Shown here: positions 45,110 to 58,662 of the stretch, piece by piece
Position numbering within the stretch: the first letter of the stretch is position 1
How the letters are laid out: the number at the start of each line of letters is the position of its first letter
Source of the DNA: Escherichia coli
GTDB lineage: Bacteria > Pseudomonadota > Gammaproteobacteria > Enterobacterales > Enterobacteriaceae
Reading direction: 5' to 3' (one strand)
Length of the DNA: 64,000 bases
NCBI RefSeq assembly: GCF_024502345.1
Contig: NZ_JALDNN010000001.1
Translations under genes and position numbers: made by a program
Notes under the pieces: model-generated
What the model was told of the DNA's origin: nothing
What the model saw: only the letters and a program-made list of their open reading frames with translations
Database searches by the model: none

Positions 45110-45253
45110 TACATTCTCCTTGTATTGAATAGGAATAATCATAGTCGGAGCGAATGGTCGAAGCCATTAAAAAAATGGGTCCTTCCTGAGACTTTTGTAA
45201 GGCACGGGCATTGCGCGCCGCGGTGTTTTCCTAGCTACAACTTTCAGATTTGT

Positions 45254-45402
45254 GTCCCATGTCCCACCTCTGGCGATCATTACGGACACCTCGCCAGCTC
45301 TGGCTATTCCAGTTTATTCCAGTGGGACATTCTGGTGGGACATGGCAAAAATGTCCCAGGCGAATGTCCCACCCCAGAAAATGTCCCAGGTGATGTCCCA
45401 TG
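45254..45402. promoter_or_regulatory. array of 8 copies of (A)TGTCCCA, 6 direct and 2 inverted; putative cosB-type binding sites
   Basis: Motif at 45254, 45261, 45322 (inverted), 45335 (inverted), 45351, 45364, 45381 and 45393, the last overlapping the terminase small-subunit ATG; GC-rich gcgcgccgcgg lies just upstream (about 45212-45225). Confidence 0.45.
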
Positions 45403-45969
45403 ACCACGATGAACCAGAGTCAGTACGCACAACATTCAGGTGTGGATCGCAAAACAATTGGTCGGTGGATTAAAGCCGGGCGCTTCATTGTGATGGACGG
45501 AGACCTGATTGACGTAGAGGCCAGCGATGCGGCATTGAAGAAAAACCGCGATGGCAAAGACCCGCGCGCCTCGAACGCGAAGAAAAAGAAAACTCCCGTC
45601 GTTAGCGATAACGATGATGACGGTGATGAAATCAATAAAACTGTCCGCCAGATAATGCTCACTGAAGGGGCAGATCTTTCGAGAGAGGAAGCGGGACGTA
45701 TCCGCGAGAATTACATGGCCCTGCAGGCAAAGCTGCAGTATGAAAAAGACAGCGGCCAGCTTATTGAGCTGACAGCAGCCGAGGAGGTTTTATTCAACGC
45801 CTTTCGCCAACAGCGTGATGCCTGGCTTAACTGGCCGTCCAGGGTGGCGCCGCTAATGGCTGCTGATCTGGATGTACCGGCGGACAGGATGACAGAGGTG
45901 CTGATTGAACATGTCCACAAACACATCTCAGTCCTCGGAGAGCCAGAGTTTAACCCGGCAGAAGATTGA
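45400..45969 (+). CDS. terminase small subunit (lambda Nu1-like)
   Basis: N-terminal winged-helix region (RKTIGRWIKAG) and C-terminal resemblance to lambda Nu1; immediately upstream of the large subunit. Confidence 0.75.
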   Translation: MTTMNQSQYAQHSGVDRKTIGRWIKAGRFIVMDGDLIDVEASDAALKKNRDGKDPRASNAKKKKTPVVSDNDDDGDEINKTVRQIMLTEGADLSREEAGRIRENYMALQAKLQYEKDSGQLIELTAAEEVLFNAFRQQRDAWLNWPSRVAPLMAADLDVPADRMTEVLIEHVHKHISVLGEPEFNPAED

Positions 45970-48034
45970 GCGTCTTGAATTAAGCGTCCGCAAAGGCTGG
46001 ACACCCCCGCCGCGTATCAGTGTGCCGCAGTGGGCAGATGACTATCGTAAGCTGGCAAAAGAGGCTGGGAGCACTTCGGGAAACTGGGAAACATCGACGG
46101 TAGAAATTGCCCGCGGACCGATGCTTGCCGCGACGGAGTCCGGGGTTCATATCATCACTGTAATGTGCTGTACCCAGTTGATGAAGACAGCACTGCTGGA
46201 AAACCTTTTTGGCTATTTTGCCCACCTCGATCCTTGTCCGATACTGCTGCTGCAGCCGAAAGAAGAAGCCGCTGAACAGTTTTCGAAAGAGCGTATTAGC
46301 CCGCTGGTAAGGGTGACGCCGGTACTGCGTAAAATCATCGGTGATTCGAAACAGAAAAGCTCGAAAGAAACCATTCTTTACAAGGCATTCACTGGCGGAT
46401 TTCTGGCGCTGGCGGGTGCTGGTAGCCCTGATAACCTTGCGCGTCGTCCGATTCGTGTCCTGCTGGCGGATGAAGTGGACAAGTACCCGATAACCCGCGA
46501 AGGCGATCCAATTGCGCTGGCCGAAGAGCGTACAGCGACATTTGGCCTGACCTGGCTGTCTGTACGCGCCTGTTCGCCGACGGTGGAGGATGAGAGCCGC
46601 ATTGCTGACAGCTACGCCGACTCCGATCAGCGCCGGGCATCTGTGGTTTGCCCGCACTGTGGCCACCGCCAGTTCCCCGACTTTTTCAAACACGTTCAGT
46701 GGCCGAAAGAGGGAGATAAACACCTGACTAAATCGGCGATGCTCTATTGCGAATGCTGTGGTAGTGGCTGGTCCGAAGGACAGCGCCTCAGAGCTCTGCA
46801 CACTATTCGATGGCATCAGACGCGCCCATTTGAGTGCTGCGGGGAGCGGCACTCACCGCTGATGGATTATGACCTTGCCTGGCGGGCGGCAGACGAGGGC
46901 AGCGTTGAAAAGGTCTGGCAATGGTCAGAGTCGGAACGGCATGCGGTCTATCGCGCAATCTGCCCCTCCTGTGGAAAGGAGGCAGTCGATAACCACCACG
47001 CGGGGTACCAGGCATCCAAGCTTTTCAGCCCCTGGCAAAAAGATAAGCCGTCGGATATTGCGAAAAAATATATCGATGCGAAGGGCGATCCGGATAAGGA
47101 ACAGGCGTGGTGGAATACCCAGATGGGGCTTCCGCACCGACCTAATCATGGGAAACAGCTCCCTGTTGATGTTCTGCTGGCGCGCCGGGAAATATTTCCG
47201 GCCGTCGTTCCGGACGGGGTGGCATTGTTAACAGCTGGAGTTGATACCCAGGACGATCGCTTCGAAATTACGATCACCGGCTGGGGGAGAGATGAAGAAT
47301 CGTGGTCGGTCGCGCATGACGTTATTTATGGTGACCTTGAGACGGAAGAACCCTGGAAGCGACTGGATGCATACCTGAAACAGATCTGGCGACGTGGTGA
47401 CGGGCGCGGCCTGAATATCATGGCAACGTGCATGGACTCCGGTGGCCACCATACGCAGAAGGTATACGAATTCGCCAAAGAGCGTCTTGGCCGTCGTGTC
47501 TGGGCAATTAAGGGGGAGTCTGCACAGGGAGGTAAACGCAATCCTGTCTGGCCGACCAAACGACCATCATCGAAAAGCAAAGCCAGTTTCCGCCCTGTCA
47601 TTCTGGGGGTTAACTCAGCGAAAGACGTGATACGCGGTCGCCTGCATCTTGAGCCACCCAAACCTGGCGCCGCCGCTGCGGGTTATATGCATTTTCCTGA
47701 CGATCGCGATCTCGGGTACTTCAATCAGCTGCTGGCGGAGCGACTGGTTTACAAAGTCATTTCCGGGCAGCGGTACAGTATCTGGGAAGCAATACCAGGA
47801 CGAGCTAACGAAGCGCTTGACTGCCTCGTTTACAGCTATGCCGCGCTGTGCGGTCTCAAACATATGGGGTTAAAACTCAACGTCCGGGCCGCCAACCTCG
47901 AAGCCGATCCGGATAAGTTCCTGCCAGCGCCAGTTGGACAGGAAGAAAAAATCAATTACGAGCTGCCGGGTGCGGTTATTGAAGAACCAGCGCCGGTCAA
48001 ACGTAAGCGAATATCGCAACTCCTGCCGAAATAA
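45905..48034 (+). CDS. terminase large subunit (lambda gpA-like)
   Basis: 709 aa; conserved blocks shared with lambda gpA (VPQWADDYRKL, CPHCGHRQF, LTAGVDTQDDRFEITITGWG, ATCMDSGGHHT, NEALDCLVYSYAA). Confidence 0.9.
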   Translation: MNMSTNTSQSSESQSLTRQKIERLELSVRKGWTPPPRISVPQWADDYRKLAKEAGSTSGNWETSTVEIARGPMLAATESGVHIITVMCCTQLMKTALLENLFGYFAHLDPCPILLLQPKEEAAEQFSKERISPLVRVTPVLRKIIGDSKQKSSKETILYKAFTGGFLALAGAGSPDNLARRPIRVLLADEVDKYPITREGDPIALAEERTATFGLTWLSVRACSPTVEDESRIADSYADSDQRRASVVCPHCGHRQFPDFFKHVQWPKEGDKHLTKSAMLYCECCGSGWSEGQRLRALHTIRWHQTRPFECCGERHSPLMDYDLAWRAADEGSVEKVWQWSESERHAVYRAICPSCGKEAVDNHHAGYQASKLFSPWQKDKPSDIAKKYIDAKGDPDKEQAWWNTQMGLPHRPNHGKQLPVDVLLARREIFPAVVPDGVALLTAGVDTQDDRFEITITGWGRDEESWSVAHDVIYGDLETEEPWKRLDAYLKQIWRRGDGRGLNIMATCMDSGGHHTQKVYEFAKERLGRRVWAIKGESAQGGKRNPVWPTKRPSSKSKASFRPVILGVNSAKDVIRGRLHLEPPKPGAAAAGYMHFPDDRDLGYFNQLLAERLVYKVISGQRYSIWEAIPGRANEALDCLVYSYAALCGLKHMGLKLNVRAANLEADPDKFLPAPVGQEEKINYELPGAVIEEPAPVKRKRISQLLPK

Positions 48035-48042
48035 GGAAAATC

Positions 48043-48306
48043 ATGTTCAACCGGAACACCAGCCTGCTTGCCGGCGCAATGACTGACGATCAGCTCAGGG
48101 ATGCGCTTGCGAAAGCTCAGCAGGCGTACATTGATTTAGCAACCGGGAGCCACGGTGTTTCGTTTTCCTATACGCAGGGAGACGGGACGCGATCAGTGTC
48201 CTATCAGCAAAGCACCCTGGCTGATCTGCTGGCCCTGATTCAACTTCTGCAGGCGCAACTGGGGATTATCTCTCGTCCCCGGAAACCAGCGAGGTTTAGA
48301 TTCTGA
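48043..48306 (+). CDS. head-tail joining protein (gpW-like)
   Basis: 87-aa ORF between terminase and portal, the same size and position as lambda W. Confidence 0.6.
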   Translation: MFNRNTSLLAGAMTDDQLRDALAKAQQAYIDLATGSHGVSFSYTQGDGTRSVSYQQSTLADLLALIQLLQAQLGIISRPRKPARFRF

Positions 48307-49943
48307 TGAATAAAGTACAGATACTGGGCTCTGATGGGCAGCCGTTGCGACAGCAGCGTCCCTCTATGCTGGTGGGGGGGAGCCGCGTACCTTATGACGC
48401 AGCTGACTCTTTCAGCGATCAACTGGCGAACTGGCAACCCGCGCTGTGGTCCCCGGACAATGAAATTAACATTTACCGGGATCGCATCGTGTCCCGCGCA
48501 CGCGATCTGGTCCGTAATGACGGCTGGGCAAACGGTGCGGTCACACGTCTGCTGGATAATGCGGTTGGTGCCAACTTCCGCCCCATCATGAAACCCGATT
48601 ACCGTGTTCTCAGAATGATCACCGGAAACAAGGCGTTTGATGCGTCCTGGGCGGAAGAGTACGGAAAAGCACTGGACGGGCACTGGCGGACCTGGAGTAA
48701 CGATCCTGGCCGGTATTGTGATGTTGAACGAAAACTCACCGTGTCGCAGATGTTACGCCTGGGATTTCGTCACAAGCTTATTGACGGGGATGCTCTGGCC
48801 ATTCTCCAGTACAGAACTGACAGGCTTGGTCCCGGAAGAGGGCGTTACGCCACCACGGTACAGATTGTCGATCCTGACCGCCTCAGTAATCCTCAGCAGA
48901 ATTTCGATATGCCAAATGTCCGTGGTGGCGTTGAAATTGATGCGGACGGTGCGCCGGTTGCTTACCACATCAGGGAGGCCCATATCGGTGACTGGTGGAG
49001 CGGGGCTAAAACCATGACGTGGCAGCGTATCCCGCGTGAAACTGACTGGGGCCGCCCGCATGTGGTTCACGATTTTGATCATGAGCGTGGCGCGCAGCAC
49101 CGTGGTAACGGCATCCTGACTCCGGTTATTCAGCGTCTGAAAATGCTGGTGAAGTATGACCAGAGTGAGCTTGAGGCAGCAATTCTTAATGCCATATTTG
49201 CCGCTTACATTGAGTCACCCTATGACCCTGCGATGGTTCAGTCTGCCCTGGGCGAGACCTATGACGAGTCGGAGTTAGGCACTTATCAGGACGGGCGTGT
49301 TGAGTTCCATAACGATCGGCGTCTGACACTTCAGAATGGTGCCCGAATGCCCATTCTTTATCCTGGTGAGAAAATCACGACGGTTAACGCGGCGCGGCCC
49401 TACAGCAATTTTGAAGTCTTCGAATCTGCTGTTCTCCGTAATTTTTCTTCAGGAACAGGGTTGTCCCCACAGCAGGTCACCCAGGACTGGTCTGACGTTA
49501 ACTACAGTTCTGCACGCTCCTCGTTGCTGGAGGCATGGAAAACACTGACTCGCCGCCGGGACGATTTTTCTACCGGCTTCGCTCAGCCCATTCTCACCGC
49601 CTTTGTTGAAGAAGTTCACGACAATGAGGATTTACCCCTGCCCGCAGGCGCACCTGATTTTGTTGACGCCAGAGCCGCGTATTCTCGCGCGCGCTGGATG
49701 GGGCCAGGGCGCGGCTGGGTGGATCCGGTTGCAGAGAAAAAAGGCGCCATTCTTGGTCTGGATGCCGGACTTTCCACCCTCGAGATTGAGGTGGGTGAAA
49801 ACGTCGGTGAAGACTGGGAAGAAGTGCTTGATCAGCGCCAGAGAGAAATTGAGTCATGTCTTAAACGCGGATTACCGCTTCCGAGCTGGGCACAGGCTGA
49901 CCAGTTTGCGAGCCAGACCATTACCGATCCGGAGGAAAAGTGA
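48306..49943 (+). CDS. portal protein (lambda gpB-like)
   Basis: 545-aa ORF following gpW, upstream of an S49-type protease. Confidence 0.8.
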   Translation: MNKVQILGSDGQPLRQQRPSMLVGGSRVPYDAADSFSDQLANWQPALWSPDNEINIYRDRIVSRARDLVRNDGWANGAVTRLLDNAVGANFRPIMKPDYRVLRMITGNKAFDASWAEEYGKALDGHWRTWSNDPGRYCDVERKLTVSQMLRLGFRHKLIDGDALAILQYRTDRLGPGRGRYATTVQIVDPDRLSNPQQNFDMPNVRGGVEIDADGAPVAYHIREAHIGDWWSGAKTMTWQRIPRETDWGRPHVVHDFDHERGAQHRGNGILTPVIQRLKMLVKYDQSELEAAILNAIFAAYIESPYDPAMVQSALGETYDESELGTYQDGRVEFHNDRRLTLQNGARMPILYPGEKITTVNAARPYSNFEVFESAVLRNFSSGTGLSPQQVTQDWSDVNYSSARSSLLEAWKTLTRRRDDFSTGFAQPILTAFVEEVHDNEDLPLPAGAPDFVDARAAYSRARWMGPGRGWVDPVAEKKGAILGLDAGLSTLEIEVGENVGEDWEEVLDQRQREIESCLKRGLPLPSWAQADQFASQTITDPEEK

Positions 49944-50806
49944 ATCTACCCCATCTGGCCCAGCGATTATTTAACACCCCGCTGGCGCTGCACCCGAGTA
50001 AAGCCGAAGTCATCATGGCATCCGTAATGGACCGATTTGGTATCAGTAAAATCGAATCTTCTCTTGCCATGGAGGATGACTGGTACGGATATGACGATAA
50101 CCGGGGACGTGAATCCCGTAGTGATCCGGGTTATGACAATGTGCTGGGTGTCGCCGTCATCCCGATATGCGGAACGCTGGTGCAAAAACTGGGCAGTCTG
50201 CGTCCGTACAGTGGAATGACAGGGTATGACGGCATTCGTCAGGCGTTTCTTACTGCGATGGAAGATCCCGACATTTCGGGCATTTGCCTGGATATCGACT
50301 CACCCGGCGGCGAGGTCGCTGGATGCTTCGATCTGGTTGATGTCATTTACGGCTCCCGGGGGAAAAAGCCTATCCATGCCATTCTGACGGAAAGCGCTTA
50401 TTCCGCTGCGTATGCCATTGCCAGTGCAGCGGACCGGATTTCTGTTCCGCGCACCGGCGGAGTGGGTTCTGTGGGTGTGATCACCATGCACCTTGACTGG
50501 ACGCAGCGGATTAAAGATGACGGTCTTAAAGTTACGATCATCACCTATGGATCCCGCAAGGCTGAAGGTTCGCCGCTGAGAGAGTTGTCAGATGAAGCTC
50601 TGGCCGCCATCCAGCAGGACATTAACACCATGGGCGAATTGTTTGTGAACACTGTTGCCAGAAACCGGGGGATTAGCGCAAAGGTTATAAAAAGTACCCA
50701 GGCCGCCTGTTTTATGGCTGCTGATGGCGTTGAAATTGGACTGGCTGATGAGGTGTGTCCTCCTGACGCTGCGTTCAAAAACTTACTTGAAAAAACAGGA
50801 GCCTGA
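49940..50806 (+). CDS. head maturation protease (S49/ClpP-like, lambda gpC-like)
   Basis: GICLDIDSPGGEVAG ... ILTESAYSAAYAIASAADRI resembles SppA-type serine peptidase motifs. Confidence 0.8.
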   Translation: MNLPHLAQRLFNTPLALHPSKAEVIMASVMDRFGISKIESSLAMEDDWYGYDDNRGRESRSDPGYDNVLGVAVIPICGTLVQKLGSLRPYSGMTGYDGIRQAFLTAMEDPDISGICLDIDSPGGEVAGCFDLVDVIYGSRGKKPIHAILTESAYSAAYAIASAADRISVPRTGGVGSVGVITMHLDWTQRIKDDGLKVTIITYGSRKAEGSPLRELSDEALAAIQQDINTMGELFVNTVARNRGISAKVIKSTQAACFMAADGVEIGLADEVCPPDAAFKNLLEKTGA

Positions 50807-50807
50807 A

Positions 50808-51398
50808 ATGGCAAAGAAAAAGACGTTTAGTTTTGCTCACCTCATTGGTCTTGGCCCTTCCGCTTCTGAGGAAGAAGAGGATAAAAAAGCCAAAAAAGCG
50901 AAAGCCCGTCGCGCGGAAGAGGACGAGCGCGAAGATGATGCCGATGATGATGAGCGCGACGACGACGCGGAAGAAGACGAACGCGACGATGATGCTGAAG
51001 ATGACGGCGATGATCCGGATGCGTCAGAAGATGATGATTCTGAAGACGACGGCGACGACGATCGCAAAGAGAGTAAGGCGGTAAAAAATGCACGCGCTGC
51101 TGAGCGTAAACGCTGCGCCCGTATTTTCGGCAGTAAGCATGCAGCTGCGAATCCTTCACTGGCCGCGTCACTGGCTTTCAATACCGGGATGAGTTCTGCG
51201 GCAGCAATTAATGTCCTAGCCTCTTCGGCTCCGGCCGCAGCCGCATCTCAGCCATCCCGTAAACGCTCTCTCGATCAGCGTATGCAGGAAAGCCACCAGG
51301 TCCGGCTTAATCCGGATAGCGGACAGAAAGAGACCGGAAAGTCTGCGCTGGTAAGTAAAATGACCGGCCTCTACAACTCCACAAGAGGAGAGAAATAA
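50808..51398 (+). CDS. acidic low-complexity head protein (possible scaffold)
   Basis: aggag RBS; Asp/Glu-rich repeats (EDEREDDADDDERDDDAEEDERDDDAEDDGDD) then an Ala/Ser-rich tail; sits between protease and decoration/capsid genes. Confidence 0.5.
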   Translation: MAKKKTFSFAHLIGLGPSASEEEEDKKAKKAKARRAEEDEREDDADDDERDDDAEEDERDDDAEDDGDDPDASEDDDSEDDGDDDRKESKAVKNARAAERKRCARIFGSKHAAANPSLAASLAFNTGMSSAAAINVLASSAPAAAASQPSRKRSLDQRMQESHQVRLNPDSGQKETGKSALVSKMTGLYNSTRGEK

Positions 51399-51802
51399 TG
51401 GATCAGTTTGGTCAGAATGCGTTTGCGCCTGGCATGAAGAGCGCGCTGTTTGTTCCGGATCAGCTTGTCGCTGGCACGCTCCAGCTGGTGACTGACACCG
51501 GGATCATTACGGGCGGTGCCTTTAAGCGTGGTACTGTCCTGGGCCTGGTGGCTGCCAGCGGGAAATACACGCAATGTGTGAAAACGGCTGAAGATGGCAG
51601 TCAGTTACCCGTTGCTATTCTGGTTGATGATGTTGATGCATCGTCTTCCGATCAGAACGGCGGCCTGTATCTGATGGGGGAATTCAACCAGCACCGAATT
51701 ATTTTTGATAACTCCTGGACGACCGCTGACCTGAAAAAAGCGCTCCGACCGCTGGCTATCTTCCTGAAAGACAGTGACCAGGCACCTGTAACCACCTCCT
51801 GA
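51398..51802 (+). CDS. head decoration protein (gpD-like)
   Basis: 134-aa ORF immediately upstream of the major capsid gene. Confidence 0.55.
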   Translation: MDQFGQNAFAPGMKSALFVPDQLVAGTLQLVTDTGIITGGAFKRGTVLGLVAASGKYTQCVKTAEDGSQLPVAILVDDVDASSSDQNGGLYLMGEFNQHRIIFDNSWTTADLKKALRPLAIFLKDSDQAPVTTS

Positions 51803-51899
51803 TTTCCCCCACGGCTCTCCTGACGAATGCTTTAACCGGCAGGGGCTGGCTCGTTTAAATTTTTTGCCAGCTGCGGCTGGCACTATCAAGAGACTGAAT

Positions 51900-52949
51900 A
51901 TGGAAAATATTTTTGATACCAGCGTGCTGGTGCAGGTTGTTCCTAACCTGAAAACCAGTCAGAACTGGCTGCTCGATCGCTTCTTCCCGAATGTCGTGAC
52001 TTACGAGACTGAAGAAGTGGCGATTGATGTTGATGTCGGCCTGCGTCGTATGGCGCCGTTCGTCTCCCCGCTGGTGGAAGGTAAGCTGGTCGAATCCCGT
52101 AAATACCAGACCAATACCTTCAAACCGGCATACATCAAAGATAAGCGCGCGCCGGACCTGCGCAAACCTATCCGCCGCCAGATTGGTGAGCGTATTGGCG
52201 GGGAATATACCGCTGCCGAGCGCGAAATGCTGAACCTTCAGTTTGAAATGACTGACCAGATTGACATGATCAACCGTCGTCTGGAATGGATGGCGGCGAG
52301 TGCGCTGGTGTCTGGGACCGTAACCGTCGCCGGGGAGGGCTATGAAACTAAGGTGGTGGATTTCGGGCGTGCTTCGGATCTGACCATCACTCTTAGCGGC
52401 TCGGATAAATGGCCACTGACCGTTGCAGCTGGCGCTACCAATACCCAGCCATCAGATGACATTGAAATCTGGCAGACTACTTTCCTGAAAGAGTCCGGCT
52501 CTGTCGCCACGGATCTGGTCTTTACGAATAAGTCATGGCGTGCATTCCGACTGGATACCACCATCAAGGATAACGCCATTACATTCCCGGCGCTGAGCCC
52601 GTTTGGTAACCAGATTAACGCCGGCCCACAGGTAATGAAGGGCGCAATTTATAAAGGGCGCTGGGGTAACTTTGACCTCTGGTTATATAACGACTGGTTT
52701 ATTGACCCGCTGGACAACGTCGAGAAGCCTATGATCCCCGATGGCGCTGTCATTATGAGTGGTGCCGATCTGATGGGTACCCGCGCCTTTGGCGTTATCC
52801 TGGACCCGGCTTTCAACTACGGTCCGCTGGCTTATGCGCCAAAATCCTGGGTGAAAGAAGATCCAGCCCAGCGTCTTATCCTGATGCAATCCTCCCCGCT
52901 GGTAATTCCGAGCCGGGTAAATGCATCCCTCTGCGCAACGGTGGTCTGA
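51900..52949 (+). CDS. major capsid protein (lambda gpE-like)
   Basis: About 350 aa; LDRFFPN and MQSSPLVIPS resemble lambda gpE LRLFFRE and IQSAPLMLLA. Confidence 0.8.
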   Translation: MENIFDTSVLVQVVPNLKTSQNWLLDRFFPNVVTYETEEVAIDVDVGLRRMAPFVSPLVEGKLVESRKYQTNTFKPAYIKDKRAPDLRKPIRRQIGERIGGEYTAAEREMLNLQFEMTDQIDMINRRLEWMAASALVSGTVTVAGEGYETKVVDFGRASDLTITLSGSDKWPLTVAAGATNTQPSDDIEIWQTTFLKESGSVATDLVFTNKSWRAFRLDTTIKDNAITFPALSPFGNQINAGPQVMKGAIYKGRWGNFDLWLYNDWFIDPLDNVEKPMIPDGAVIMSGADLMGTRAFGVILDPAFNYGPLAYAPKSWVKEDPAQRLILMQSSPLVIPSRVNASLCATVV

Positions 52950-52950
52950 T

Positions 52951-53331
52951 ATGGCAAAACAACCTAATACCGGGCTGGCTGATGATCTGAATGCAGAAGG
53001 ATCTGCCAAAGACGGCCTGAGCGTTGACAACCTGAATGCTGGCGATAACACCCAGGAAAAACAGCCTTTGAGCAAAACAGATGATGCCGAATTGTCTGTT
53101 GATGACGATGGTGGTGACGAAAAATCCGGAGACACTGAATCGCAGGAGTATGTGGTGTTGAAAGGGAATTGCATTCGTCATGACGGGGAGATGTACCGCG
53201 AAAATATGCGCATCCCTGTAACCGGCAAAGATGCTGAGCGTCTTCTGCAGTCCGGCGTTATTGCTGATGTTGATGTGCTTCGTAAGCGAGTTCTTGCTTC
53301 TCAGCCATCAGTTTCAGTTACGACAGGGTAA
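52951..53331 (+). CDS. hypothetical head protein (FI-like position)
   Basis: About 126-aa acidic ORF after the capsid gene. Confidence 0.4.
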   Translation: MAKQPNTGLADDLNAEGSAKDGLSVDNLNAGDNTQEKQPLSKTDDAELSVDDDGGDEKSGDTESQEYVVLKGNCIRHDGEMYRENMRIPVTGKDAERLLQSGVIADVDVLRKRVLASQPSVSVTTG

Positions 53332-53335
53332 TGAC

Positions 53336-53695
53336 ATGGGCGTGGACTGGGATTCTCATCTTCTGAGTCCGCTGCATGATGTCTTTGGCGATGAGCACGA
53401 GTACCGTCCACGTAACGGTACTCCTTTTACAATTAACGGGATTTTTGACCGTGGTTATGCGCAGGTTGCTGAAAACCTTGATGGCGATTCAGAAATTAAC
53501 ACCTCCAGCCCGATGTTGGGTGTGCGCGATGCTGAATTTCGCAAGCTGGGTAAATCGCAACCTGCTGTATCTGACCGGGTATTTATAAAGACGGTCGGTG
53601 GTCACATCATCAATCAGTTATTTGTTGTGTCAAACGTCGAACCCGACAGTCATGGCGGATCTCGTCTTGTCCTCAATGTGGTAAAACCGCGATGA
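53336..53695 (+). CDS. head-tail connector/head completion protein (FII-like position)
   Basis: About 119-aa ORF by position in the head-to-tail transition. Confidence 0.4.
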   Translation: MGVDWDSHLLSPLHDVFGDEHEYRPRNGTPFTINGIFDRGYAQVAENLDGDSEINTSSPMLGVRDAEFRKLGKSQPAVSDRVFIKTVGGHIINQLFVVSNVEPDSHGGSRLVLNVVKPR

Positions 53696-54237
53696 ATTCA
53701 GCAGCGATACGGCAAATGGTTGTCACTGCACTAACCGGGACAACCAGCGCGGGCGACCGCGTATTCTCTCCACGCGACTGGTCAACTTCACCAGATATGT
53801 ATCCTGTGTTGTTGGTTCAGACGCCTTTTGAACAGAAAAAATCACAGGGGCGTAATACCCCTGCTTTTACCACCCTCACCACTGTCAGGATCACTGGGCG
53901 CGTTCAGGAGTATGACGGCGATACAGTGGATGATGGAGCCATGCGGGCAGAGCTGGCGCTTGAAAGCCTTCGCGAGCAGGTGGAGCGCGCGGTGATCAAC
54001 AGCTACGAACTGACGCGGAATATTCAGAAATACGCGGAAGTTCGTTCAACCATCAATGTTGATTCAGAAGGAGAGGCCCATATGGGGCAGCTTCTTTTCG
54101 AGATCGATATAGAGCATTACCAGGGGCCGGAAGATTTTTATCCTGTCCAGTCGGTTCCCCTTGAGGGCATGGATATTGCGGTCGACATGCCAGACGGCAC
54201 AGTTAAACCGGGTATCAGCCTCAATCTTCAGGAGTAA
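53692..54237 (+). CDS. putative tail completion/neck protein
   Basis: 181-aa ORF overlapping the neighbouring stop codon; by position. Confidence 0.4.
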   Translation: MNSAAIRQMVVTALTGTTSAGDRVFSPRDWSTSPDMYPVLLVQTPFEQKKSQGRNTPAFTTLTTVRITGRVQEYDGDTVDDGAMRAELALESLREQVERAVINSYELTRNIQKYAEVRSTINVDSEGEAHMGQLLFEIDIEHYQGPEDFYPVQSVPLEGMDIAVDMPDGTVKPGISLNLQE

Positions 54238-54240
54238 TCC

Positions 54241-54438
54241 ATGTTTGTTAAGCCGAACAACGGGCTCAGCGTTCGCTGCCCCGTCAAGGGCATCCCATTG
54301 CCTAAAGAGGGTGCTGAAGTACCTGACAATATTTTCTGGCGTCGCCGTCTGAGCGATGGGGACGTGATCCTCTCTAAAAAGGATGAGGGCGCGCCAGAGA
54401 AACAATCATTACCTAAAAAAGCGGGAGAAAATGAATGA
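54241..54438 (+). CDS. hypothetical small protein (65 aa)
   Basis: ORF immediately upstream of, and overlapping, the sheath gene. Confidence 0.3.
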   Translation: MFVKPNNGLSVRCPVKGIPLPKEGAEVPDNIFWRRRLSDGDVILSKKDEGAPEKQSLPKKAGENE

Positions 54439-55937
54439 CCGTACCTTTCGCTCGTGTTCCCGATAACCTGCGGGTAGGGCTTTTCTTCGTTGAGTTTGAT
54501 AACTCAATGGCGAATAACGCCACTGCCACGCAGCGCACCCTGCTTATCGGTGGGATGCTCAGTACCGGCTCAACCCTCCCTGGTATTCCGCAGCGAGTTT
54601 CCTCTTCGGATACCGTCGGTGAGCTGACAGGAAAAGGGGGAATTCTGCAGGCCATGATGGCGGCGTATCAGAAAAATGATACCGCAGCCGAAGTCTGGAT
54701 CCTGCCGCTGGAGGAAGACTCCGATTCCATGGTGGCTGCAACCGGCACCATTAGAGTGAGCAGCGCACCGACGGAAACCGGAGTGATCTCCCTTTATATT
54801 GCTGGTGAGCGCATTCAGTTGACCGTTGTAGCAACAGATACGGTGGCAGCGATCGCCACCTCTCTGGCCGCGGCGATTAACGCAAAAACCACGCTACCTG
54901 TAACCGCCAGTGCGACTACGGATACCGTAACCCTGACCGCGAAGAATCTTGGTGCTACGGGTAATGGGATCGACATTCGCCTGAACTTCCTCGGCTTACC
55001 TGGAGGCGAGTCCACACCTGCAGGCCTGGAACTGACGATTACTGCTATGTCTAACGGAGTCGGGGCTCCGGATATTACCGGCGAGCTGGCAAACCTGCAG
55101 GATCGGACATTCGATTTCATCATCAACCCTTACGACGATACAACCTCGTTGAATGTGATGAAGGAGTTCCTGTCAGACACTGGCGGTCGCTGGGCATGGG
55201 ACAAGCAGCTTTATGGCCATTCCTTTGGTACAACCACCGGGACTTACGCCCAGCTCGGTACCAAAGGTGAGCTGCGCAATAACCAGCATGAGACCCTGCT
55301 GGGCGTAAATAAATCGCCGTCCCCTTCCTGGGCATGGTCTGCAGCTTACACCGGCGCAGCTGCGGTGAGTCTGCGTAATGACCCCGGCCGCCCGCTACAG
55401 TCGCTCGCTGTTCAGGGGGTGCTTGCGCCAGAACTGCAGGATCGCTTTGAGCTGACCGAGCGTAACAATCTGCTGTACAGCGGCATTTCGACATTTACGG
55501 TCGATGACGATGGCACGGTGCGCATTGAAAACCTGATCACCACCTACCAGAAAAACAGCTATGGCGATGCAGATGACAGTTATCTGGAAGTGGAGACGCT
55601 GTTCAGCCTGATGTTTGTGACCCGCTACCTGCGCACAGCGGTGACCAGCAAGTTTGGCCGTATGAAGCTTGCTGCGGATGGAACCCGATTTGCACCTGGC
55701 GCGGCGATCGTCACGCCAAACATTATCAAGGCCGATCAGATTGCCGAGTACCAGACTCTGGTATGGAACGGTTATGCGCAGGATGCGGAGGCATTCGCAA
55801 AAAATATCATCGTCGAGCAGAACGCCAAAAATCCGAACCGCGTCGATGTGCTGTGGCCGGGAACCCTCATGAACCAGTTGCGCATTTTCGCGCTGCTCAA
55901 TCAGTTCCGCACTCGGGCTGAATCAACAGGAGCTTAA
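54435..55937 (+). CDS. contractile tail sheath protein (Mu gpL-like)
   Basis: 500-aa protein followed by a 123-aa tube-size gene, a frameshifted chaperone and the tape measure: the canonical myovirus order. Confidence 0.7.
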   Translation: MTVPFARVPDNLRVGLFFVEFDNSMANNATATQRTLLIGGMLSTGSTLPGIPQRVSSSDTVGELTGKGGILQAMMAAYQKNDTAAEVWILPLEEDSDSMVAATGTIRVSSAPTETGVISLYIAGERIQLTVVATDTVAAIATSLAAAINAKTTLPVTASATTDTVTLTAKNLGATGNGIDIRLNFLGLPGGESTPAGLELTITAMSNGVGAPDITGELANLQDRTFDFIINPYDDTTSLNVMKEFLSDTGGRWAWDKQLYGHSFGTTTGTYAQLGTKGELRNNQHETLLGVNKSPSPSWAWSAAYTGAAAVSLRNDPGRPLQSLAVQGVLAPELQDRFELTERNNLLYSGISTFTVDDDGTVRIENLITTYQKNSYGDADDSYLEVETLFSLMFVTRYLRTAVTSKFGRMKLAADGTRFAPGAAIVTPNIIKADQIAEYQTLVWNGYAQDAEAFAKNIIVEQNAKNPNRVDVLWPGTLMNQLRIFALLNQFRTRAESTGA

Positions 55938-55940
55938 ACG

Positions 55941-56312
55941 ATGGCAGGTGATACTACTAACCGCCTGGCGGGAACCGCCTATGTCACTGTTAACGGTGTG
56001 ACGGTAATGGTGGAGGGCTCGTTTAAATACCAGGCTGCCACCGTAAACCGTACCACCCTGACAGGGATGGATGGTGTGCACGGATATAAGGAAAAACCTG
56101 TGGCGCCATACATTTCTGCCCGACTGCGTGACAGTGGCGGAACGAATGTGCAGGGCTTTAACCAGCAGACGAACGTCAACGTGATCGCCGAGCTGGCTAA
56201 CGGGAAAACTATCATTGGCCGTTCACTCTGGACGGTCAACGTCCAGGAAGTGGAAAGCGAAGATGCAGTATTTGATGTTCGCTGGGAAGGCCGCGACGTA
56301 ACGGAGAACTAA
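55941..56312 (+). CDS. tail tube protein
   Basis: 123-aa ORF directly after the sheath. Confidence 0.65.
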   Translation: MAGDTTNRLAGTAYVTVNGVTVMVEGSFKYQAATVNRTTLTGMDGVHGYKEKPVAPYISARLRDSGGTNVQGFNQQTNVNVIAELANGKTIIGRSLWTVNVQEVESEDAVFDVRWEGRDVTEN

Positions 56313-56313
56313 G

Positions 56314-56741
56314 ATGGCTGAGATTGAACGCGTTAAAACCATTCCATTAACCGTAGCGCTGGATGATGCTGCGGAGAAGACCACTTATACGCAGCTGGAG
56401 CTGAAAGCACCCACGCTAAGCCAGGCTGAGCAGTTTTACGAGAAACAGGCTGCGTCAACGTCGCTCGCGGCGATGCGCCTGCTTATTGCGCTGGTTTCCG
56501 GTACGCGTGAAAGCGTACTGCAGCCGATGGATTTTCTCGACTTCCGTAAGTGTGAGGAGTATCTGCTCAGTTTTTTGACCTGGAAGCCCTGACAACCTGG
56601 CAGGAAATGGCCGCTGACGTCACCTTCTATTTCCGCTGGTCTGAGGACAGGGCGTGGGGAATGACCCGCGCCCGGCTGAAATGGTGGGTGGCGCAGGCAT
56701 CCCGGATAAACAAGCTTAGGAAACCTGAAGACGATGAGTAA
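56314..56741 (+). CDS. tail assembly chaperone with programmed -1 frameshift (short form ends 56592; extended form to 56741)
   Basis: Slippery heptamer T-TTT-TTG at 56571-56577 in frame X-XXY-YYZ; the -1 frame stays open for 56 codons and ends 5 nt inside the tape-measure ORF. Confidence 0.65.
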
Positions 56742-58662
56742 TTCTTTTGATTTTGAGCTGGTGGCCAGCGACCAGGTTAGCGAGGCTATAGACCGCATTA
56801 ATGAGGCTGTCCGTGACCTGGAGCCGAAGCTAGATAAAACTAAAGAAGGGCTCAAGTTAGGCGGTCAGGAAACAGCCGACGGACTGAGCGGTTTTATTTC
56901 TCGCCTCGAGAATATGTCGAAGAGCGCGCGGGATAACGTGCAGTTTATTGGCGACATGGTTCCCCCACTGAAAATGGTGGGGGAGCTCACGGGGAAGATG
57001 GGGGCGCTGGGGTTAGCCGGTGCTGCCGGCTACGGACTGAAACAGGTCGCTTATGGATTTCGGGAGGCATCCCGTCAGGCCTATAATCTTGATGTCTCGG
57101 CAAAAAATGCGGGAATGCGCGTTGACGATTTTACCCGACTTTCCGGGGCAATGCGTATTCTTGGGGCAGACAGCGAGAGCGCTAATGCATCAATAGAAGG
57201 TATTTTCAAAGCATTCAATGAGGCTGCCAGTGGTAAAAACGAGGGGGTTATGGCAGCGATGGCGCAAATTGGTGCTCAAATCCAAAAAAACAGCGATGGT
57301 TCAGTAAATACCCTTAAAACACTGGAGTCTATCGCAAAAATTTTTCCAACCTTGCGACCTGAACAGCAGAAGTCCGCCGCTGATGCACTTGGGCTGACGC
57401 CCGAATTGCTGGCGCTAATGCGTGACGGTGAGCGCATGAAAAAGCTGCTGGCGAAATCGGATGAATTTGGTCTGACTGTGGATCCGGCACTAAATCAGCA
57501 ATTGAGTGAAGTGAACGGCACTATGAATGAGCTCAGCGCATCCTGGGATGGTCTGTGGCAACGTTCAAAAAACAAGGCACTTAAGACCATTCTTTCGGAT
57601 GGTTCAGTCAAAGACGGCCTTGAAGGTGTTACCGATCTGTTCACTAATGGTGATTTTACTGGGCTGTCTCATGCTCTCGGTTTTATCAACAGCAATGATG
57701 CTGAGAAACTACGGCGCATTCAGAACGATAAGGAACTTTATAACAGCTTACCCCGCAGTGAACGTGGGCAGGTTGACGCGGGTTTCATGACTGATGCTGT
57801 AAGAAAGCGGTACGATGCGAATTACCGCGCGACCGATTCTGCGATTCAATTGCAGAATGACTTATCCGCTATCAGCCAGCCACAATCCAACGTTGCACGC
57901 GGCAATGTTCCTTACGGGGAAACAAGGAATAACGCAATTGGCTTCAGAAATAATAATCCCGGTAATTTGAGGGCTGCAGCAAACGCAACGGGTAAAAATG
58001 GCGGATTTTCTACCTTTGCGAATGATGCCGACGGAAGAGCTGCAATGGCGAGACAGCTGATGTTGTATGGTGACAGGGGGAATAATACTCTGGATGGGAT
58101 TATTCATACCTATGCTCCGCAATCAGAGAATAATACTCGTGCATATATTGATTCCGTATCAAAAAGTACTGGGTTTGGAGCGCAGCAGCGTATTAATCTC
58201 CACGATCCTGATGTGTTAAAAACACTGATGGCAGCAATGATTAAACATGAAAGCGGAGCACAGCCGTATACCGAAAATGAACTGAGCGATTCTGTCCGGA
58301 CGGCCATCATTGACGATCGGTGGAAGGGTTTACGTAGCCCGGAAGTTCTGGCTCAACAGCGATATGATATTATCTCAGGTTCGCAAACTGGAAATCGTGA
58401 CTCCAGCACTCTTAGTAACCCGAGTGATGAAACTGATATTCTCTCAGGCTCGCAGAACAGAAATCGGGAATCCATCATTCTGAGTGATACGGGTAAGAAA
58501 AGTGATGAAAGTGTACTCGGCGACAATCTGGCTAAGTCTCTTAAAGAGGCAATGTCAGAACAACCACTTAAGCTCGAAATCACAATGGTTAATGATAAGG
58601 GTGAGCGAAAAACCTATAATGCGGAAAATAATGGCAGAATAACAACGGCCATGAATTACTGA
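56734..58662 (+). CDS. tail tape measure protein
   Basis: 642-aa ORF directly after the frameshifted chaperone pair; helical Ala/Leu-rich N-terminal part. Confidence 0.7.
   Translation: MSNSFDFELVASDQVSEAIDRINEAVRDLEPKLDKTKEGLKLGGQETADGLSGFISRLENMSKSARDNVQFIGDMVPPLKMVGELTGKMGALGLAGAAGYGLKQVAYGFREASRQAYNLDVSAKNAGMRVDDFTRLSGAMRILGADSESANASIEGIFKAFNEAASGKNEGVMAAMAQIGAQIQKNSDGSVNTLKTLESIAKIFPTLRPEQQKSAADALGLTPELLALMRDGERMKKLLAKSDEFGLTVDPALNQQLSEVNGTMNELSASWDGLWQRSKNKALKTILSDGSVKDGLEGVTDLFTNGDFTGLSHALGFINSNDAEKLRRIQNDKELYNSLPRSERGQVDAGFMTDAVRKRYDANYRATDSAIQLQNDLSAISQPQSNVARGNVPYGETRNNAIGFRNNNPGNLRAAANATGKNGGFSTFANDADGRAAMARQLMLYGDRGNNTLDGIIHTYAPQSENNTRAYIDSVSKSTGFGAQQRINLHDPDVLKTLMAAMIKHESGAQPYTENELSDSVRTAIIDDRWKGLRSPEVLAQQRYDIISGSQTGNRDSSTLSNPSDETDILSGSQNRNRESIILSDTGKKSDESVLGDNLAKSLKEAMSEQPLKLEITMVNDKGERKTYNAENNGRITTAMNY

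Follow-up and report, generated by a model that had tools for sequence, protein, structure and literature searches.

In phage Mu (gpI/gpZ), phage P2 (gpO) and the herpesviruses (protease/assembly protein), a protease and an internal scaffold are co-encoded just 5' of the capsid gene, and the protease removes the scaffold. The protease is covalently tethered to the scaffold domain in these systems and is therefore delivered into the procapsid. In phage lambda, the scaffold Nu3 is produced from an internal start in gene C and has its C-terminus in common with the protease. Nu3 self-associates, binds gpE and gpC, is required for portal incorporation and is probably degraded by gpC before packaging (PMC3224144). 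In this study we analysed a 64,000-nucleotide (nt) stretch of Escherichia coli DNA (NCBI RefSeq assembly GCF_024502345.1, contig NZ_JALDNN010000001.1; hereafter the window), in which a gene at positions 50808..51398 on the plus strand follows that of an S49 head maturation protease. We consider it probable that the product of this gene is the scaffolding (capsid assembly) protein for the lambda-type head of a temperate myovirus prophage, being a distant homologue of Nu3 that has a gene of its own. Unlike in lambda, the scaffold gene is separate and in another frame than the protease gene, and the protease is devoid of a scaffold domain; the covalent link characteristic of Mu, P2 and the herpesviruses is likewise absent, and there is no conserved frameshift site. 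A preliminary description of the window had proposed a scaffolding role from the position of the gene between protease and capsid. This proposal is now supported by the homology of the core of the protein to Nu3, by matches to the scaffold half of fusion families, by invariant synteny and, weakly, by the absence of a homologue from the proteins detected in the virions of Serratia phage vB_SspM_BZS1 (BZS1).

The evidence for kinship with Nu3 comes primarily from a helical core domain, residues 84-147 (51057..51248; this and the other features of the head module are on the plus strand), which AlphaFold2, run with the family alignment, predicted with a predicted local distance difference test (pLDDT) score above 93. 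This domain carries the motif ERxRCxxIF...AAxxPxLAAxLAFxTxMS and is homologous to Nu3 residues ~108-160. When residues 92-160 were compared with Nu3 112-177 by BLASTP, the identity was 30% and the E value only marginal (0.06). A 13-sequence profile matched Nu3 with an E value of 0.0027, and the profile of the 136-sequence family, compared with Nu3 by hhalign, gave a probability of 87.5% and an E value of 3.6e-6 over residues 88-167 of the window protein and 108-184 of Nu3. In both proteins the helical core follows the pattern ERxR..I...A.GR/P..A..LA.T.GM/MS...A...L and is succeeded by LD.(R/L)MQ, which in the window protein belongs to a short conserved helix, SLDQRMQ (residues 155-161; 51270..51290), aligning with ALDRLMQ of Nu3. 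Positions E99, R102, C103, I106, F107, A112, A119, A120, A123, F124, T126, A133 and M159 were near-invariant among the 136 aligned sequences. The two proteins are also alike in size (196 amino acids (aa) in the window and 201 aa in Nu3), in having a disordered region ahead of the core, and in the slot of their genes after those for gpW, the portal and the S49 protease and upstream of the gpD and gpE homologues. We conclude from these alignments that residues about 88-167 are homologous to the Nu3 core and correspond to what had been described as an Ala/Ser-rich region. The composition had been described correctly, since Ala and Ser make up 58% of residues 111-150; however, this segment is not a low-complexity tail but part of the conserved, confidently predicted helical core.

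Over residues 3-196 the protein matched phrog_6382, a family of unknown function (E 3.5e-77; profile positions 2-200 of 201), which was matched by all 136 aligned relatives as well. Weaker matches were obtained with phrog_17040 and phrog_53 ('head maturation protease'). The window protein covers positions 298-463 of the phrog_53 profile and the upstream protease positions 6-290, so that the two genes jointly tile the profile of a protease-scaffold fusion. Reciprocally, Nu3 matched phrog_6382 (E 3.8e-4) and, over the same segment, phrog_17040 and phrog_53. Among the family members, 132/136 matched phrog_17040 and 60/136 phrog_53, and a few matched phrog_8399 ('head scaffolding protein') or phrog_8940 ('capsid assembly protein'), the family of Nu3. 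A Foldseek search of BFVD with the predicted fold returned solely S49 'prohead protease' entries, matched in their C-terminal parts, and Foldseek gave no match in the PDB. The sequence search of the PDB produced only low-complexity noise (NOC3, Toc34), the NCBIfam scan nothing meaningful, and the Pfam matches to Nop14 and CDC45 were below the cut-offs and were produced by the acidic tract of the protein. The Pfam scan also detected no S49 domain in the 50808-51398 open reading frame (ORF). We therefore rejected the identification of the product as an S49/gpC protease; the PHROG 'head maturation protease' labels stem from the scaffold half of the fusions. At the N-terminus the two scaffolds differ: Nu3 starts with the last helices of the S49 fold and lacks an F-A-H-L motif, whereas the window protein has this motif and no S49-derived N-terminus. 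We treat the lack of nesting within the protease gene as a matter of lambda gene organisation rather than of the protein family, and it does not exclude homology.

The separate location of the gene also bears on whether its product could be the detached C-terminal half of a gpC-like protease, either joined to the protease by a programmed +1 frameshift at the GAA AAA ACA run or left over as a pseudogene fragment. The protease gene (49940..50806) encodes 288 aa, compared with 439 aa for lambda gpC, and is without the C-terminal scaffold half; the invariant Ser155 and Lys207 are present, Pfam and PHROG both assign the protein, and its residues 2-272 are 36% identical to gpC 7-283, i.e., to the protease part only. 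The gene under study begins 1 nt past the protease stop, in the +1 frame relative to the protease, and this frame is open for 84 nt upstream; moreover, an A6 run lies 12 nt ahead of the protease stop, and one database protein (P0002) is an S49-scaffold fusion. However, a non-slippery sequence takes the place of the A-run in many relatives, whereas the ATG and the Shine-Dalgarno sequence are conserved. The latter (AGGAG, 50797..50801) is located 6 nt 5' of the ATG within the last codons of the protease gene, and its GGAG core was retained across 42 distinct junction variants of the related loci, while the adjacent A-run was not. In addition, the fusion in P0002, from a 1.2-kb Logan contig, arises through an indel at a much more upstream position. 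Of the 150 best representatives of the family, 134 stand alone at full length (150-236 aa), and the two genes are also split in functional phages. The programmed frameshift at the A6 run was thus rejected, and we regard an origin of the product as a detached protease half in either form as extremely unlikely. As to P0002 itself (306 aa, contig of 1162 bp), its apparent fusion stems from the indel near the 3' end of the protease gene (…AKVIKVPRPPVLW…), probably an error of assembly, and illustrates how contigs of this sort can imitate fused genes.

The gene extends from ATG 50808 to TAA 51396-51398 and encodes 196 aa (pI 4.67), 49 of which are Asp or Glu. RefSeq/PGAP predicts the identical ORF in E. 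coli genomes with the same prophage and labels it 'hypothetical protein'. Given its low-complexity DNA and the long ORFs that are open on the opposite strand as well (50837-51181 and 50842-51171), the frame could have been thought a non-coding, GA-rich repeat that is open by chance. This is already refuted by the conservation data, and its probability is negligible: there are 740 homologues, and 988 representative clusters were found with a C-terminal profile, a folded domain is confidently predicted, and the Shine-Dalgarno sequence and the translational coupling are conserved. The ORF was intact in 33 independent complete E. coli genomes and in 80 related loci with 15 different lengths. Within the acidic tract, the variable sites at codon positions 1, 2 and 3 numbered 19, 13 and 46 of 49 codons, and the flanks displayed the same pattern. 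The preliminary description had pointed out that a frameshift within the repeat would indicate non-coding DNA; the maintenance of the frame in the 33 genomes and 80 loci, together with the third-position bias, excludes this. Hence, the 50808-51398 ORF is a genuine coding gene. The Ser-rich and Arg/His-rich products of the two opposite-strand ORFs are by-products of the GAN-codon repeat and have no support as genes.

The protein has four parts: a short F-A-H-L motif at the N-terminus, a disordered, charge-blocky linker of ~70 aa, the Nu3-like core with its helical fold and, at the C-terminus, an amphipathic helix that is basic. The N-terminal motif FSFAHLIGLG (residues 7-16; 50826..50855) was recognized in the 136-sequence alignment and at the N-termini of distant relatives; F9, H11 and L12 are almost invariant throughout the family. 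AlphaFold2 gave the motif a pLDDT of about 67 and assigned it no secondary structure. Residues 1-83 as a whole were predicted to be disordered (pLDDT 45-67). The motif is followed by an acidic run, SEEEED (residues 20-25), and a basic patch, KKAKKAKARRA (residues 26-36; run and patch together 50865..50915), a module of basic patch and acidic run that is present in one to three copies in relatives. The main acidic tract comprises the 49 residues 37-85 (50916..51062), 37 of which are Asp or Glu (76%; binomial P about 4e-25 against a background of 11.5%); its net charge per residue (NCPR) is -0.69, it is predicted to be disordered (pLDDT 45-56), and R, A, G, S and P recur in it at regular intervals. 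The C-terminal helix, residues 178-193 (SALVSKMTGLYNSTRG; 51339..51386), is conserved and was predicted with a pLDDT of 81-87.

The acidic tract is thus extreme, but not in the form in which it had first been described, namely as some 70 almost pure Asp/Glu residues. The tract with the best score spans 49 aa, of which 76% are Asp/Glu, and the wider zone of residues 20-97 contains only 55% Asp/Glu because KKAKKAKARRA separates the SEEEED run from the main tract. The claim that the region is encoded by short tandem DNA repeats was correct for a 27-bp unit at 50916..51006, for which Tandem Repeats Finder (TRF) reported 3.4 copies with 76% matches. Read in frame, this unit corresponds to the 9-aa sequence [E/D][E/D]DER[E/D]DDA, which occurs three times and is followed by degenerate copies; the remainder of the tract is degenerate and does not fit the claim. 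On either side of the acidic block the protein is basic (pI 10.0 for residues 1-36 and 10.7 for residues 97-196), and its charge segregation is pronounced (kappa 0.355 compared with 0.159±0.032 in shuffled sequences). With a fraction of charged residues of 0.67 and an NCPR of -0.33, the linker falls in the regime of expanded polyelectrolyte coils.

The family to which the protein belongs is large. A word-indexed search (E <= 1e-3) detected 740 homologues of 160-208 aa in prophages of Enterobacterales, essentially all unnamed, from Escherichia, Klebsiella, Citrobacter, Enterobacter, Raoultella, Pectobacterium, Edwardsiella, Salmonella and others, and an exhaustive profile search with the C-terminal domain yielded 988 representative clusters at 50% identity. 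The domain is C-terminal in the full-length proteins among the 150 best representatives, and nearly all of the remaining representatives are shorter, truncated ones. The 1270-aa repeat protein P0261, found among the profile matches, was discarded as a spurious low-complexity match. In the 136 aligned members, the linker between the N-terminal motif and the core measures 90 aa on average and contains 40% Asp/Glu and 20% Lys/Arg, with a mean net charge of -17 (range -31 to +8). The linker of the window protein (net -28) is therefore close to the acidic extreme of the family, and it differs markedly from that of lambda, which is rich in S, T, A and Q and has a net charge of about -2. The view that the tract is unusually long applies to the comparison with lambda but not to the family itself, whose members normally have acidic linkers of about 90 aa.

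Among the cultured phages of the INPHARED set, the gene was present only in BZS1 (p06) and Citrobacter phage PhiNP (phiNP_023), where it is annotated as 'hypothetical' in both cases; a tblastn search of cultured phages with two distant family members again retrieved BZS1 alone. Both phages form viable myovirus particles (PMC7556043; PMC6456863). Mass spectrometry (MS) of BZS1 virions identified 13 proteins, including the decoration protein p07 and the capsid protein p08, but neither p06 nor the protease p05 (PMC7556043). The non-detection of p06 is consistent with a scaffold that is removed, albeit as weak evidence.

This observation is also relevant to the idea that the product is a packaged or injected polyanionic DNA mimic, either anti-restriction like Ocr and ArdA or resembling the internal head proteins of T4, which itself or as an acidic fragment stays in the head and acts on the next host. 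An NCPR of -0.69 over 49 aa in a gene located within the head module would suit such a role. In T4, acidic prohead material is processed by the head protease, and mature heads retain acidic peptides derived from prohead core proteins, which also speaks for it. However, while the window protein would share with the T4 prohead core proteins and internal peptides the strong acidity of material in the prohead, no homology to them was found. T7 Ocr and ArdA resemble it in their high Asp/Glu density, but they are rigid folded mimics with a patterned surface charge, whereas the tract is predicted to be disordered rather than folded into a DNA shape and has no sequence or fold similarity to them. Moreover, the PDB contains no match by sequence or fold, the conserved part of the protein is Nu3-like, the homologue went undetected in BZS1 virions, and the rare family members P0179 and P0212 have a non-acidic linker. 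A DNA mimic is therefore very unlikely.

The tract had also been suspected to be a hypervariable region, and its comparison between relatives supported this only in part. The gene was found in 33/5426 complete E. coli genomes, and in 29 of the 33 the allele was of equal length and at least 99% identical. Tract length ranged from 13 to 58 aa, with 52 distinct alleles of 38-58 aa among the 80 loci. The EEDERDDDAE-type unit is shared by most relatives, and the shorter alleles had cleanly lost 18 aa (2 repeat units), 36 aa (4 units) or, between repeated EDDGDD motifs, 15 aa. A different type of change was seen in the prophage of E. coli GN05064: the DNA identity to the window is 95-100% across the head module but drops to about 59%, with 21 nt of gaps, over 50908-51107, and a Glu-rich tract stands in place of the Asp-rich one. 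The number of alleles, the deletions by whole repeat units and the allele swap within an otherwise nearly identical head module all speak for a contingency locus, in which repeat slippage would provide adaptive diversity under diversifying selection (e.g., for escape from a host defence that recognizes the protein) and tract length would not simply drift neutrally. However, the tract was less conserved than both flanks at 33/79 loci only, the E. coli alleles are mostly uniform, and composition and net charge are held across about 1000 clusters. Substitutions in the tract are biased towards the third position as in the flanks, and diversifying selection would hardly be expected to act on a protein that lies inside the particle and is then removed. 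We hold a contingency locus to be decidedly unlikely. Comparing repeat number across related prophages thus uncovered a length polymorphism in 9-aa steps but no consistent hypervariability, and our reading is that the tract is a slippage-prone, low-complexity segment that is selected for composition and charge and is occasionally swapped wholesale, not a dedicated hypervariable locus.

The synteny around the gene is in accordance with a scaffolding role. The related IMG/VR loci were gathered with the 13-sequence C-terminal alignment, and in all 77 loci with enough flanking sequence the order was protease, scaffold gene, gpD-like gene and gpE-like gene. In the same 77/77 loci the scaffold gene overlaps the decoration gene by -1, its TAA sharing one nucleotide with the following ATG (TAATG); the two genes are apparently translationally coupled. 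All seven distant relatives that were looked up (about 35-40% identity) retained the S49 protease upstream and/or the gpD-type gene downstream, as far as the contigs reach, and on the longer contigs the genes for gpA, gpW, the portal, the capsid and a Mu-type tail were arranged as in the window.

Separate genes also encode the scaffolds P22 gp8, phi29 gp7, T7 gp9 and 80alpha gp46, which are largely helical or disordered, elongated and absent from mature virions; several are acidic overall, and a C-terminal helix is thought to bind the coat protein. The window protein would function in a similar way but has no detectable sequence or fold similarity to these stand-alone scaffolds, and none of them is known to have a repeat-encoded tract of ~50 aa with 76% Asp/Glu between basic blocks. 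Furthermore, the P22 and phi29 scaffolds leave the procapsid intact and are recycled, whereas the module in the window co-encodes a dedicated S49 protease. P22 gp8 is reported to have mobile disordered segments while inside procapsids (bioRxiv 10.1101/539965). By analogy with other scaffolds, we infer that the C-terminal helix of the window protein may be its capsid-binding end.

Assembly could accordingly be envisaged as follows. The scaffold would assemble in many copies together with the portal and the gpE-type capsid protein. Self-association and shell binding would be supplied by its Nu3-like core and its C-terminal helix, in the manner of the Nu3-Nu3, Nu3-E and Nu3-B interactions of lambda. 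The polyanionic linker would reach into the cavity as an expanded, self-repelling chain that fills the interior of the procapsid, and its acidity would keep the protein, whose ends are very basic (pI 10-10.7), in solution and away from nucleic acid. The co-encoded S49 protease would then degrade the scaffold, and the fragments would exit before or during DNA packaging. The 27-bp repeats would predispose the tract to in-frame slippage, with selection acting on charge and composition rather than on the exact sequence.

The N-terminal motif offers a further possibility. The N-terminus of the protease (49943-49996; NLPHLAQRLFNTPLALHP) and that of lambda gpC (NLPHIASMAFNEPLMLEP) bear a loose likeness, of only 3-4 residues, to the FSFAHLIGLG of the scaffold, and at the distant locus L087 F-A-H-L occurs in both the protease (QQFAHLATRLFN) and the scaffold (SRFAHLMPAFLG). 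F-A-H-L common to protease and scaffold could represent a shared docking tag. Going further, the split arrangement might imply a non-covalent, electrostatic scaffold system, in which the F-A-H-L tag, comparable to the cargo-loading peptide of encapsulins, would recruit the protease or attach the scaffold to either shell or portal. The linker, with its basic patches and Asp/Glu block (about -28 per chain), would drive self-coacervation of the scaffold core and, lining the inside of the capsid, would hold the place of DNA until the incoming genome displaced it competitively, so that total charge and not sequence would tune assembly and scaffold exit. We regard this more elaborate scheme as speculative and rather unlikely.

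Several points weigh against the assignment as a scaffold or against parts of it. The homology to Nu3 is remote, amounting to 26-30% identity over about 75 residues, and is significant only with a profile. Each role proposed for the acidic tract, the N-terminal motif and the C-terminal helix is inferred, and the scheme offers no route by which an unfused protease would enter the procapsid. When AlphaFold2 was given the protease joined through a 30-aa GS linker to scaffold residues 1-40, with a shallow paired alignment of 18 rows, docking of the F-A-H-L motif on the protease gave no signal (pLDDT 27-41 for the scaffold part and 58 on average for the protease). In addition, the MS analysis of BZS1 virions also missed the portal p04, which makes the absence of p06 weak evidence (PMC7556043), and the literature searched holds no experiment on any family member.

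The neighbouring genes were assigned by Pfam and PHROG. Upstream of the protease are the genes for a gpA-like large terminase (45905-48034), gpW (48043-48306) and a lambda-family portal (48306-49943), and downstream of the scaffold gene are those for the gpD-type head decoration protein (51398..51802; PF02924, E 3e-20) and the gpE-type major capsid protein (349 aa, 51900..52949 with the PGAP start; PF03864, E 2e-60). The start of the capsid gene is ambiguous: the mechanically called ORF begins with TTG 51864 and the RefSeq annotation with ATG 51900, and the product of the latter matches the Pfam Phage_cap_E profile from position 2. Right after the capsid gene, a 126-aa ORF (52951-53331, plus strand) has an acidic, disordered-looking N-terminal half and matches phrog_24496 of unknown function (E 5e-85) and, weakly, DUF7210. 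The syntenic post-capsid genes BZS1 p09 and PhiNP phiNP_020 are 'hypothetical' as well. This ORF may encode a second unannotated head-assembly or head-completion protein. The head genes are followed by a contractile tail of the Mu type (DUF2635/Mup38, sheath 54435-55937, tube 55941-56312), making the virion module (45400-57000) a hybrid of lambda-type head and Mu-type tail, a combination that is kept in distant relatives. The late region 45176-57188 shares 98.6% identity with an E. coli AW1.7 prophage, whereas the 45 kb upstream in AW1.7 show no match to the window, and in a search with 33000-57000 the best complete E. coli genomes covered this stretch only from about 43600 onward. Since the match to AW1.7 is limited to the late region, the prophage is either mosaic or integrated elsewhere. 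The window was found to contain no tRNA genes.

Taken together, the window protein is most likely a Nu3-type scaffold that has been uncoupled from the protease and equipped with a repeat-encoded polyanionic linker; the gene is of a familiar kind and only slightly unusual in its design. For annotation, the lesson is that the Asp/Glu-repeat ORF should be recognized as a real gene whose variation in length is harmless. The assignment would give a scaffold function to a large family (PHROG 6382, about 1000 clusters) whose members are almost uniformly labelled 'hypothetical'. It would also mean that lambda-type heads can operate with a scaffold uncoupled from the protease, which raises the question of how the protease is delivered into the procapsid. 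Finally, the family provides a natural allele series of polyanionic linkers with very different lengths and net charges from +8 to -31, which would be suited to asking whether charge, and not sequence, governs scaffold function and exit.

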